From NCBI GenBank assembly GCA_951406725.2, contig OX597833.1, positions 21,018,001 through 21,082,000 on the forward strand: a stretch of DNA of 64,000 nucleotides, written 5' to 3'. The stretch is from Octopus vulgaris (lineage: Eukaryota). The notes below the pieces were generated by a model. It ran no database searches, was not told where the DNA came from, and saw only the letters and a program-made list of their open reading frames with translations. The first letter of the stretch is position 1, and the number at the start of each line of letters is the position of its first letter. Both the position numbers and the translations under genes were made by a program. Shown here in pieces: positions 3,781-62,214 of the stretch.

Positions 3781-4319
3781 CTAGCAATGCTAAATAAGCC
3801 TTTATCATTCTGTATACGCTACATCTGATGCTTCACATTCTCAGTTTTTCTCTCAAATCACTTACACTCTGTCGTATATGCACACCGACATCACCCATCC
3901 AGTGGAGCATACTAGGTCCATTTGTTTCAAGCGTTCGCATATCCTCAGTAGTCACAACCCATGTCTCAATGCCATGTAACATAGCTGTTCACATACAGGC
4001 ATCATACAACCTGCCTTTCACTTTGAGGAAGAGGACCTGTGTTACAAACAGACATAGCAGCTCTCTGAACTTTGCACAGCCTATTCTCATTTACGCTAAC
4101 CCTCTTCCTAATTAATTGAGCGATGACCCTTTCTATAACTTACATCACCTGGGCCAGCAATTTGATGCTGCTGTAATTATTTCTGTCTGGGGCATCACCT
4201 TTGCTTTTGTAGCGGTTGATTATAATGCTGCTACACCAATCGTTGGGCATTACTCCCTCATGGACAACCTGATTAACTATACAGGTGACTAGGTCTTGTC
4301 CCACTCGACCAGACATTTT

Positions 4320-13511: not shown

Positions 13512-13521
13512 ATGCATGTAT

Positions 13522-13665
13522 ATAGGGAGAATTCACAAAACAAAACAAAAGACGAAGACAGGTGGTGTAGACAACAAACAGATGTATTAGTATAACGCTT
13601 GGGAAGTGAAAAAGCCTTTAAGGTTTCGAGCCTATGCTCTTCCACAGAAAGGAGCACAGAAAGAA
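13522..13665 (-). mobile_element. Penelope pLTR remnant with degenerate HHR
   Basis: Same family as 46097-46262; minus strand TTT-CTGTGGA-AGAGCATAGGCTC-GAAA-CCTT-AAA. Confidence 0.6.
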
Positions 13666-14247
13666 ATTGTATAAAGGATTGTGGGTAAGGCCAGAACAAT
13701 GTGAAGTAAATGCAAGGCAAATCACAAGTAAACAAATATATGAATTAATGTAGACTTACCATGCATTTAATATTTCGCATTGTTCTGGCCTTACCCATGA
13801 TCCTTTATACAATATATTCTACACAATGTTTCATAGTAATTATTCCATATATATATTAAGGTGATTCCCACTGAGCATTCTCAACTTCTCTCCTAAATGT
13901 GAGTAGCCCTGTAGCCGCTCTACAAGAAGAACCTGTCTACCAACCCCTTCTCTCAAGCTTTAACCCCTCATCTACTAGCATAGAGGTGCCTGCCTCCCCC
14001 ACCTCAGGTTTTGTGGTCTTGTGCCAGGGGCACAAAAACTGCTCAGCAAATGCTGTAAATAGTAGGCATTTGAAAGGACATTCAGTCATAGAAACCATAC
14101 CAAAAGAGACACAAGTGTACAAAGGAGCCCTTAAACCCATCAGATCCTGTCGAACCTTATCATCCATGTCAGCATGGAACATGGACATTAGATGATGACA
14201 ATGATGATGATGCTATATAAGTGTGTGCATCTATATATATATGTATA

Positions 14248-35002: not shown

Positions 35003-36435
<1,433 letters not shown>

Positions 36436-37147
36436 GGGAAGCCTTGTGCCTATAGTAGAAAGGATTATTGTTTCTGAATCTATTCTGACCCAGAATAGTA
36501 GCACTGTTCAGGGTTCCCGATATGGGAATTTGCATGTCACGGAGCTTTCACTTACAGACACCCGAATGGGTTCAGTGGAGATGAGGGCTTTCAGCTCTTT
36601 AGCTGCTCGTCTAAGGGAAGGTAACTTCATTAAAATCCTGCATCCTGATATCTACTGTGTTCATAACACTTGTTGCACCAGACCAATACAACTTCAAGGA
36701 GAAGAGAGTGGGACTGATTCCGTACAAACTATGCCTACTGTACTAATAAACTCCTGAAAAGGCGGCGAATTGGCAGAGTCGTTAGCACACAGGGCAAAAT
36801 GCTTAGTGTCATTTCGTCCACCTTTACATTCTGAGTTCATCTTCTGCCAAGGTTGACCTTTGTCTTTCGTCCTTTCGGGATCGATAAGATAAGTACCAGT
36901 TGAGCACTGAAATCGATGTAATCGATTTACCCGCTGTCCCGAGTTTGCTGGCCTTGTGCAAAAATTTAAAACCAATAATAAACCCATGCTGCCTTTTGGA
37001 GTAATTTATTGAGCGCTTATAAAAAAAAGATTAATGAAGTAACCCCCTACAGAAAATACGGAAAGAGGAACCCTAAGGTAGATATGTATGGTCATCTTTT
37101 TCTTTCTTTCTTTTGCGCTCTTTTCAAGCCTAGCCAGGCTCATGATG

Positions 37148-43816: not shown

Positions 43817-43885
<69 letters not shown>

Positions 43886-43891
<6 letters not shown>

Positions 43892-45960
43892 AAAAATGAA
43901 AAAACTACAGAAGGCTTAAATGTTAAAAAATATATATTTGCGTCAATATGTCTGAAGAATATTAAAAAATTTTTTGAAGAATATTAAAAAATTTTTTTTT
44001 CCTCTTATAATGACATAATTTAGAAGAAATTCTCCTAAACCCTTCTGAAACCCTTCCTTAAACATATCGATAGCCATATCAGAGATGACTTGGATATATT
44101 AAACCACCTTCCAAAAAAAGCCAAGGAAGAAACAATCCTGGTTTCATTTGATGTCAGTTAACTTATATACCAGTATACCTCATAATTATGGACTAGAGGC
44201 AATACAGTTCTGGCTGGACCAATTTCCGGAAGAAATACCAAAAGGATCAGTAAAGAATTCATTACTAAATCAATTGAATTCATCCTACACAATAACCACT
44301 TCATGTTTGACAATACATTTTACCGTCAAAAATCCGGAATTGCTATGGGTACAAGGGCAGCACCAGTCATTGCGAACCTAACAATGGGCTACATGGAAAT
44401 AATCATTTACCAGGAATCTTTATCAATCTTTGGAAACCCCATTTCTCAATACATAAAAGAGAATTGGAAACGATTCTTAGACGATTGTTTTATACTCTGG
44501 AATGAAAACACAGATAAACTCCTAAAATTTAAAAACCTATTGAACAGCATAAACCCAAATATACAGTTCACAATGGAATACAACCAAAAGGAGCTCCCGT
44601 TCTTGGATATACTAATTTAAAAAATTAACCTTAAAATAGAAACAGACATTTTTTACAAAGCCACAGACGCCAAACAATACCTTCTTTTTAATTCATGCCA
44701 CCCAAGACACACTAAAACAAACATCCCCTTCAACCTTGCACAGACGCCAAACAATACCTTCTTTTTAATTCATGCCACCCAAGACACACTAAAACAAACA
44801 TCCCCTTCAACCTTGCAAGAAGGATATGCACAATAGTGTCAGAACAAAATACCAGGAACTTTAGACTGCAAGAACTCAAAAACACCCTAATTGACAGACA
44901 TTACCCAGCTCAACTCATAGAGGATGGGATCAGACGTGCAACAGAAATCAACATAGAAACTTTAAGAAAAGTTCAACACAACAACACACCTTCCCCGAAA
45001 ATACTACCTTACATATCTACATACAACCCCAGAAACAAAGAAGCCTTCACCATCATCACCCAGAATTTACCAATACTTCATAAGGACCCCAAATTAAAGG
45101 AAATTCTAAACATACACCAAATCATTAAAAGCTATAAACAAACTAAATCACTTAAAAAGATTCTCACAAAGGCAAAATTGTCTTCTGATACTACGGATGC
45201 AAAAGTAAAAAAATGTGGTAGATCGAACTGTGCAACATGTCCAAACCTGCTAGAAGGATCAGAATTCCTCTTTAAAGAGGGACAGAAATTCAAGATCAAA
45301 TCTAACTTTACTTTTGCCTCTGAAAACATAATTTATGTCATAAAATGCTCGGGCTGCCACCAAGACTACGTGGGATCCACGGGACTATCACTCAGACGTA
45401 GATGCACACTGCATCGACAACAGATTGCATTCCCAGAATACAGAATGATACCTTTTAGTGAGCACATTGAGAAATGCGCAAAGCAACTACTACCACAATT
45501 TTTAATCTTTCCATTTTACCAATGTGCTATCGGATCATCAACACAAATTAGACTAAACAAGGAAACATTCTTCATTGAAAAGTACAAGCCCAGACTTAAC
45601 CATCCCAACATACTGATACAGAGAAATTCACACCAAGGGAAAGGAAAATATTTTTAAGCGATTATCTCCCTTACACCGGAAGAAATCACTCATTACCTCC
45701 CCTTATTTAGAACTCTTTTGAACATAAACATAACGATAACCCTGTTCAACATAAACATAACGTCGCAAGAAATTTGAAAAGCTAAACGCGAAACCGGTCT
45801 TTCTTCTAAATTATGTCATTATAAGAGGAAAAAAAAAATTTTTAATATTCTTCAAAAAATTTTTTAATATTCTTCAGACATATTGACGCAAATATATATT
45901 TTTTAACATTTAAGCCTTCTGTAGTTTTTTCACTTTTTACTATTTTCTATATATTCAACC
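43886..45960 (+). mobile_element. Penelope-like element, 5'-truncated (RT plus GIY-YIG pseudogene), with an inverted pLTR copy at the 5' end
   Basis: LVSFD..NLYTSIP, GIAMGTRAAP, WKRFLDDCF, LPFLD, IYVIKCSGCHQDYVGST; frameshifts and a 77-bp internal duplication at ~44662-44817; 43886-44029 is the reverse complement of 45800-~45945. Confidence 0.93.
45767..45805 (+). ncRNA. minimal hammerhead ribozyme with U3-A8 covariant core
   Basis: AAGAAA-(T)-TTGAAAA-GC-TAAAC-GC-GAAA-CCGG-TC-TTTCTT; palindromic loop III; predicted cleavage after 45799. Confidence 0.65.
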
Positions 45961-45993
45961 ACGTGCTTTCACAAACCAACTTTCTTATCTCTC

Positions 45994-46262
<269 letters not shown>

Positions 46263-46278
46263 TGTGGAGTGGCTAGCG

Positions 46279-46350
<72 letters not shown>

Positions 46351-49309: not shown

Positions 49310-50591
49310 TCAGGTCATTCCATAACTTCCGTCCGAATTTTGAATAAAGAAAACAAGTAATCAAATGTTATATTTAATTGAAATTTAATAATCAATGTAC
49401 TTTCCCTGATTATCTATGACTTCCTTCCAGCTAGTTACAAGCTTTTTAATCCCATCAATGTAAAACTCTTTTGGTTTCAAAGCAAAGAGCTCTGAAATGT
49501 CAGTTTCGACCTCCTCCTGGCTTGCGAAAGTTATGTCCCCCAAATGATTCTGTAAACTATGAAACAAATGGTAATCTGAAGGAGCAAGGTCGGGAGAATA
49601 AGGTGGATGAGGAATTTTTTCCCAACCAAGCTCTTCGATCTTCTGTGATGTGATCTTTGTAGTGTGGGTTCGTGCATTGTCCTGATGAAACACCACTCCT
49701 TTTCGATTCACTAATGTGGATCTTTTTTCTCCAAAGCTTGGTTCAAACGCTCTAATTGCTGACAGTAGACTTGAGCATTGATTGTTGCATTATGTGGTAA
49801 CAATTCAAAGTGAATTACTCCTTTGCAATTCCACCAGATAGAGAGAAGAACCTTTTCCCCATGAAGTACCCTTTTCGGCTGTGGTTGAGCCTTTTCCCTT
49901 TTACCAAGCCACTGTTTATGACATTTATCATTTCGATAGAAGATTCATTTTTCATCACCAGTCACAAGTCTATCCAGAAAGGGTGAAATGAGTTCGCGAG
50001 AATGGAGAGAAGAACAGATTTCAACTCGGGATTTGCGGTTGATTTCGAACACTTCAAGAGGCACCCATTTTTCAAGTTTAGGAACCTTCCAACTTGTTGA
50101 AGATGACGATGAACAGTTGTATGGTTTGAACTAAGCTTTATTGCCAATTCTTCAACTGATAATGCAGGATTTTCTTCAAGTAATGCCTCAAGGAGTTTAT
50201 CATCAAACTCAACTGGACATCCTATTCGATTTTCAAGGCTGAAATCTCCACTTCTGAATTTTGCAAGCCACCTTCTGCAAGTTCTTTCATTCAAGCATCC
50301 TTTCCTATAAACTGAGTGTTTGTTTCGAGTTGCTTCGGCTGCAGAGTTTCCTTTTTTGTACTCATAAGGCATTATGTGTCTCAAATGCTCTTTGGATACT
50401 TTCATGTTAGAAAGGGTTTTAATCAAAGAAAATTTAATTCTATTATTGTGTAAAATAATATTTAATTAGTTTAAATGTACACAAATGCATAAAAATAATT
50501 TTTAATTCCATTAGACATTCTAAAATACTATTAAATTTAATCCAATTTTTAAAAAAAGGTAAAATCGGACAGAACTTATGGGACGACCTGA
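49310..50591 (-). mobile_element. full-length mariner (DD34D) transposon with a frameshifted transposase
   Basis: TIRs TCAGGTCATTCCATAACTTCCGTCCGA / TCGGACAGAACTTATGGGACGACCTGA, TA TSD; HTH region, VTGDEK, HQDNARTH, HPPYSPDLAPSDYHLF. Confidence 0.95.
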
Positions 50592-61955: not shown

Positions 61956-62214
61956 TATATATATATATATACATACGTTAATAAATACATACATATTATG
62001 CTTGACTGCTAAATCTACAGGTTTTTTCATTCTCTCTCTGTTTCTTTCTCTTATTCCTTTCTGTTGAAGAGCGTAGACTCGATACGTAAAAGAGTTTTTC
62101 ATTTTTCATTGTCCTGTGCGTCGAACTAATACACCTGTTTGTTGTTCATACACCTGTTTTCGTCTTTTGTTTTTCTATAAATTTCCTCTCTCTCTCATCC
62201 TCTCTCCCTCCATT

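Follow-up and report, generated by a model that had tools for sequence, protein, structure and literature searches.

An inverted 5' arm in a Penelope-like element of Octopus vulgaris ends at the predicted cleavage site of a minimal hammerhead ribozyme

Introduction

Inverted 5' arms with a one-sided tail are already published for Penelope-like elements (PLEs), and so are hammerhead ribozymes with a U3-A8 core (PMC8557442, PMC3846280, and PMC4209133, in the text accessible of each). In the insertions of EN+ PLEs described in the available parts of PMC8557442 and PMC3846280, the inverted arm abuts the body, a tail of about 30 nt is found on one side only, microsatellites serve as target, and there is no clear target-site duplication. 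The insertion studied here agrees with them in all of these features. The tail of about 30 nt is described in excerpts of both PMC8557442 and PMC11167929. Cores with U3-A8 were published for PLEs of Schistosoma, and minimal PLE ribozymes were found to cleave weakly in vitro, even as dimers (PMC4209133, in part). According to the accessible sections of PMC8557442, it is unclear what the hammerhead does in EN+ PLEs.

The integration reaction is described for Poseidon of Anolis. According to the portion of PMC11167929 at hand, its protein nicks and extends both target strands, RT starts at two sites that bound the tail, and the ribozyme cuts only together with the protein. In the same portion, ribozyme mutants left insertion in vitro unaffected, and RNA-seq reads ending at the site were absent. 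In R2, which we regard as working alike, a ribozyme defines the 5' end of the RNA (PMC6765202, in part).

Here we describe a PLE insertion from Octopus vulgaris in which the inner end of the inverted arm lies at the predicted cut of the hammerhead of the element. In the published descriptions of EN+ PLEs, by contrast, the inner end of the arm is not related to the ribozyme cut (PMC8557442, PMC3846280, as far as their available text goes). The literature covered held no statement of inverted arms ending at the cut, and such a statement was also absent from the accessible text of PMC7229834, PMC6765202, PMC6431247, PMC13282606, PMC13159263, and bioRxiv 10.64898/2026.07.22.740005. Work on dimer-cleaving variants of PLE hammerheads and on Terminons lay outside this coverage, and the absence of the link in print is not firm.

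Results

The analysis was performed on a stretch of 64,000 nucleotides of Octopus vulgaris DNA (contig OX597833.1, positions 21,018,001 to 21,082,000), referred to as the window, and all positions are given in its numbering. The insertion is embedded in microsatellites, with (AT)n at 43820-43885 as the 5' flank and likely target, and (TATC)n plus (AT)n at 45986-46097 as the 3' flank. No target-site duplication was discernible in the flanks. The insertion begins with the inverted 5' arm (43886-44029, minus strand, possibly including 44030), which copies the 3' repeat from 45800 to about 45947-45954 and lacks a tail. A junction zone on the plus strand (44030-44041) connects the arm to the body, a dead and 5'-truncated ORF encoding RT and GIY-YIG (44039-45657, plus strand), which was assigned by tblastn to P0001 and by weak Pfam matches. 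Further downstream on the plus strand follow a minimal type I hammerhead (45767-45805) with the predicted cut after 45799, the 3' pseudo-LTR downstream of the cut (45800-45954, delimited by alignment and by the ends of family contigs), and a probable tail of about 30 nt (45955-45985, outer limit approximate). The tail is present at this end only, as judged from its being missing from the arm. The ORF is broken by frameshifts near 44155 and 44239 and by a stop at 44618-44620, and it contains an exact tandem duplication of 77 bp (44662-44815). An imperfect duplication of about 22 nt (45832-45875) was seen in the 3' repeat and is common to the arm.

The body is related to annotated proteins of Octopus and bivalves. 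In tblastn comparisons of the RT and C-terminal segments, it was 70-74% identical to P0001 and 52-59% identical to P0002; Pfam matches to RVT_1 and GIY-YIG were present, below the curated cut-offs. Within one broken ORF, an RT of the PLE type is followed by a C-terminal GIY-YIG domain, and the pseudo-LTR with its optional tail of 30-40 nt is that of an EN+ PLE. The GIY-YIG core (45334-45375, plus strand) carries CxxC between its two boxes, and the downstream residues H225 and H242, which complete the CCHH endonuclease motif, are invariant in alignment A2. Between RT and EN, a zinc-finger-like CX4CxxC linker was found (45214-45240, plus strand), a motif of the Neptune/Nematis type as given in the accessible part of PMC8557442. 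Based on this linker, the element was placed with Neptune/Nematis and not with Penelope/Poseidon. It shares with the former clades the RT, the CX2-5CxxC linker, the GIY-YIG domain with CxxC, and the (TA)n target (PMC8557442, in part). The name Penelope, used in the first-pass annotation, is therefore suitable in the broad sense of a PLE with an inverted 5' arm but not as a clade assignment, since Penelope/Poseidon lack the linker found here. Judged by its sequence, the element is a dead, 5'-truncated EN+ PLE of the Neptune/Nematis type in microsatellites.

The window contains further repeats. Several copies of a dispersed SINE-like repeat of about 140-220 nt are found in both orientations between 40009 and 50792. 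On the minus strand at 49385-50465 there are two ORF pieces that we take to resemble a broken Tc1/mariner transposase. A separate, diverged GIY-YIG remnant of another PLE is located at 36109-36507 (minus strand). A second family consists of short pieces, mostly beside microsatellites, at 46099-46279 and 13519-13666 (both minus strand) and at 62030-62170 and 35176-35208 (both plus strand). These pieces carry a degenerate motif like a minimal hammerhead (altered first core box, hairpin, GAAA, and a CG palindrome) and are likely pseudo-LTR remnants. Their alignable 5' parts run upstream of the core and not to the cut.

The extent of the arm was determined by base-by-base alignment. Two statements of the first-pass annotation, that the reverse complement of 43886-44029 matches from 45800 onward with identity ending at 45799, and that 45799 is the C of the GUC triplet in the hammerhead at 45767-45805, were both confirmed. 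The reverse complement of 43890-44029 corresponds to 45800-45939 with 138 of 140 positions identical, and the differences are 43991/45838 (a homopolymer shift) and 43896/45933. The outermost bases, 43886-43889, could be aligned only via a small gap, and blastn stretched the arm to 43878/45954 at 95.5% identity. At the inner end, 44029 pairs with 45800, followed by a mismatch at 44030/45799, and 19 of the 25 positions of 45775-45799 beyond the arm end are mismatched. With 45799 as the C of GTC 45797-45799, the identity of the arm ends one base 3' of the hammerhead GUC. Arm and 3' repeat both have G at 45828, where A accounts for 82-98% of the family depth, and the shared minority allele indicates that both came from one source element.

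The high identity between arm and 3' repeat would also be compatible with later DNA-level copying or conversion from the element's own 3' repeat, or with an arm made by self-priming on an antisense template. Self-priming was proposed at junction palindromes for rotifer PLEs (PMC3846280, in part). However, there is no palindrome in the junction, and the arm stops before ACCGGT. The arm also lacks the tail and ends at the common family terminus, as expected of independent priming, and neither self-priming nor copying explains the register at the cut. Such an origin of the arm is considered highly improbable.

Family contigs allowed the register of the arm end to be defined more closely. An extra A follows in contigs clipped behind 45799 (9 in X1 and 11 in X2), and AA, corresponding to a GUA triplet, follows in 7 contigs clipped behind 45798. 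The copy in the window is without the A at position 1.1 that some family contigs carry and may be one base short exactly at the scissile bond. Such a loss might represent a scar of rejoining, the cause of read-through, or a later mutation. With an A at position 1.1, T45773 would be paired, stem I would have 7 bp, and arm base 44030 would be matched. The inner end of the arm may then be 44030, which is still at the scissile bond, and under the GUA variant the arm may pass the scissile bond by one base. Considering the extra A or AA in family contigs, the arm end is at +1, fixed to about 1-2 nt. The coincidence of arm end and cut is genuine and accurate to the base, in a dead PLE copy that is ordinary in all other respects.

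The bases between arm and body (44030-44041) can be read in two ways. Most homologs read D-I/L-L-L-K-P, in agreement with a body that starts at 44029 and contains an 11-nt duplication. In three Octopus proteins the sequence is D-T-L-L-K-P-F, matching ACC at 44039; in this version the body starts at 44039 and is preceded by 9 nt of filler resembling 44054-44063. Under either reading, the junction overlap would be 0-3 nt. Tandem duplications of about 10-11 nt at the body start were observed in two inversion junctions, at 44035-44056 in the window and at 2736-2755 in locus L035.

A strict scan of the 64-kb window returned a single type I hammerhead, the one at 45767-45805. Its stem I is formed by 45767-45772 and 45800-45805, with an extra unpaired T45773, and its core consists of U3 at 45774, A8 at 45779, a 2-bp stem II, GAAA at 45790-45793, and GUC. 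U3 and A8 form a compensated pair of the core. The palindrome of stem III, ACCGGT, is kept and self-complementary, with a duplex energy of -8.3 kcal/mol that is consistent with action as a dimer. Rfam at the gathering threshold gave 0 hits, and the cofold minimum of the palindromic dimer was different from the double-hammerhead fold. In free folding the hammerhead was not stable as a monomer (z +0.8 to +1.5), a result that is neither for nor against function because monomer instability is expected of dimeric motifs. The motif resembles the U3-A8 PLE hammerhead of Schistosoma mansoni in the U3-A8 covariation, G10.1-C11.1, the palindromic stem III, and the pseudo-LTR position, whereas its stem II has 2 bp instead of 7-8, positions 9 and 10.1 follow each other without an extra base, and U2.1 of this copy is unpaired (PMC4209133, in part). 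Hammerheads with a 2-bp stem II and a palindromic stem III were also found in three other PLE loci, L007, L031, and L059, so that the window hammerhead is not unique.

The first-pass annotation had concluded from the junction that this U3-A8 variant with a 2-bp stem II was active. A single junction is insufficient for this conclusion: the arm carries the 3' product only and does not record the core that may have done the cutting. The visible ribozyme at 45767-45805 was copied through intact and was thus uncut on that template.

Folded RNA could also place an arm end at this position without cleavage, if RT stalled at the folded core (dimeric stem III) or if the cDNA was trimmed to the base of a hairpin. 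An RNA hairpin does start exactly at 45800 (45800-45831, -6.1 kcal/mol, z -2.2, 5 of 200 shuffles), and the palindromic stem III duplex has the stability given above. As DNA, however, the hairpin has little stability (-1 to -3 kcal/mol), with its base two bases further inward, and no hairpin base is present at the junction of L012, the second case described below. RT would moreover have to melt stem I first, which would unfold the core. An arm end set by structure is regarded as improbable.

The family of the element was surveyed in the contigs of 4 of 24 runs; contigs cannot show RNA ends. In the contigs of these 4 runs, the family had a very high copy number. Among the variant rows listed (best 40 of 141), there was no change at 45774 or 45779, and U3-A8 is probably the family state. 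A45785C in loop II was present in 42-68% of the family depth. Family contigs often ended at 45954 in (AT)n (37 loose ends in X2 and 21 in X7). The outer end of the arm is likewise at about 45954; the sense copy continues beyond this point for about 30 nt, so that the tail is one-sided. No common start or end site of the family was called from the contigs. The inversion-type joints 44169/44514, 44182/45656, and 43963 to 45746 all lie away from the cut (best 15 of 70 joints and 12 of 39 filler rows), the last one being equivalent to an arm end near +67. No loose end was found at 44029/44030 or before 45800 among the best 24 of 1285 listed. The same-family joints are weakly negative for ends at the cut site; single-copy junctions rank low in these listings.

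To cover other animal PLEs, 83 loci were analyzed, consisting of the best 80 of 112 confirmed loci (animal DNA in metagenome or genome contigs) and 3 loci from prokaryote genome contigs. Arms were mapped by self and all-versus-all alignment. Twelve independent arms abut the sense body, one of which, in L012, ends at the cut. L012 has the same anatomy as the insertion in the window: (AT)n is followed by the arm (2276-2337), which is the reverse complement of 3791-3852 in the sibling L006. Position 3790 of L006 is C17 of a C3-G8 hammerhead, and the L012 arm accordingly starts at +1 after GUC. The 3' end of L012 is off the contig, and the ribozyme was read from L006, which is 96% identical. The L012 body runs from 2336, giving a 2-nt overlap that was checked against L006 and L021. 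The inner ends of other arms were located at +96 (L028), -61 (L035), -221 (L037), -379 (L048), and -400 (L024), and six arms end in coding sequence (L042, L045, L061, L070, L073, and L077; L045 on a tblastn basis only). Kept outside the count were L060 (the event already represented by L024), L054 and L071 (which could not be assigned), L059 (a second copy downstream), and L056 (2076-2218, a small two-piece insert with its inner end at -276), the addition of which would give 1 of 13. The 3 loci from prokaryote genome contigs yielded no further arm, and no relatives were found in viral contigs in two scans. Three animal-type PLEs, L081-L083, are filed under a bacterial genome bin and P0011 under a symbiont protein name; these entries are likely host contamination.

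The main rival to an arm copied from cut RNA is chance, in that an ordinary inverted copy was truncated at random and some of thousands of such copies end at the GUC by luck. The scattered ends of 11 of the 12 arms and the very high copy number of the family are in line with this explanation. One match among 12 arms has a rough chance of 0.02-0.17 over the nulls tried, so that a replicate like L012 is expected by chance at up to 0.17, and the 12 arms were collected retrospectively, with no null fixed in advance. On the other hand, uniform nulls give 0.02-0.11, and the L012 arm lies at +1 with a clean overlap in a PLE family 49% identical in protein. We rate chance as possible but less likely than cleavage, and the L012 replicate as suggestive but not decisive. 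The comparison of breakpoints in other copies with the ribozyme site, which the first-pass annotation had put forward as a check, gave a mixed outcome: L012 shows the same register, but 11 of 12 arms end elsewhere and the 3 listed same-family joints miss the cut.

Discussion

Our preferred reading, to which we assign a probability of roughly 0.55, is that the arm is a run-off cDNA of ribozyme-cut RNA and that integration was primed from both target strands. One cDNA, of about 1.95 kb, would have started at the outer RT start site and proceeded through an uncut ribozyme. The other, of about 150 nt, would have started at the inner RT start site and run to the 5' end of the cut RNA. Cleavage would have taken place at the ribozyme of the upstream pseudo-LTR, probably as a dimer via the ACCGGT palindrome. 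Both cDNAs may then have been end-joined head to head, with an overlap of 0-3 nt or a short filler. That priming took place twice, once at each RT start site, is an assumption drawn from the in vitro behavior of the Anolis Poseidon protein. Only a minority of arms would owe their end to cleavage.

In L1 twin priming, two primers on a nicked target lead to an inversion, and the inverted piece is an internal part of the RNA. In the insertion described here, in contrast, both outer ends are 3' ends of the element. The closest biochemical comparison is Anolis Poseidon PAc, which we take to be alike in its two RT starts bounding the tail, the extension of both strands, and the protein-assisted ribozyme (PMC11167929, in part). 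The two cases differ in that insertion in the Anolis system did not require cleavage and RNA ends at the site were not observed, whereas here a genomic junction lies on the site (PMC11167929, same portion).

An arm templated by cut RNA is favored by the arm end at +1 within 1-2 nt, by the same register in L012, and by the origin of arm and 3' repeat from one source element. The compensated U3-A8 pair, the kept palindrome, and the priming of both strands by the Anolis protein point in the same direction. The reading is weakened by the 11 of 12 arms that end elsewhere, by the listed same-family joints that miss the site, and by the fact that the window case was picked out from a high-copy family. 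In addition, the 9-12 junction bases fit filler or duplicated body alike, insertion in the Anolis system in vitro tolerated ribozyme mutants, RNA-seq ends at the site were missing there, and minimal PLE ribozymes cleave weakly in vitro. The statement of the first-pass annotation that the junction records an RNA end made by self-cleavage consequently holds in part: the inner end of the arm does coincide with the predicted cut, and L012 repeats the register, but most arms (11 of 12) end elsewhere.

Short of proof, the junctions hint that part of the RNA of these PLEs is probably cleaved in vivo by the ribozymes it carries. As a tentative extension, which we hold possible but do not consider established, a distinct class of inverted 5' arms across animal EN+ PLEs may be run-off cDNAs from hammerhead-cleaved RNA, with cut and uncut pseudo-LTR serving as two templates. 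A peak of arm ends at +1 would be evidence for cleavage in vivo by these weak minimal ribozymes and would account for the length of some inverted arms. If the extension is true, PLE integration would be two-ended, and cleavage events of minimal ribozymes in vivo, among them ribozymes with a U3-A8 core and a 2-bp stem II, would be preserved in genomes like fossils, exact to the base.
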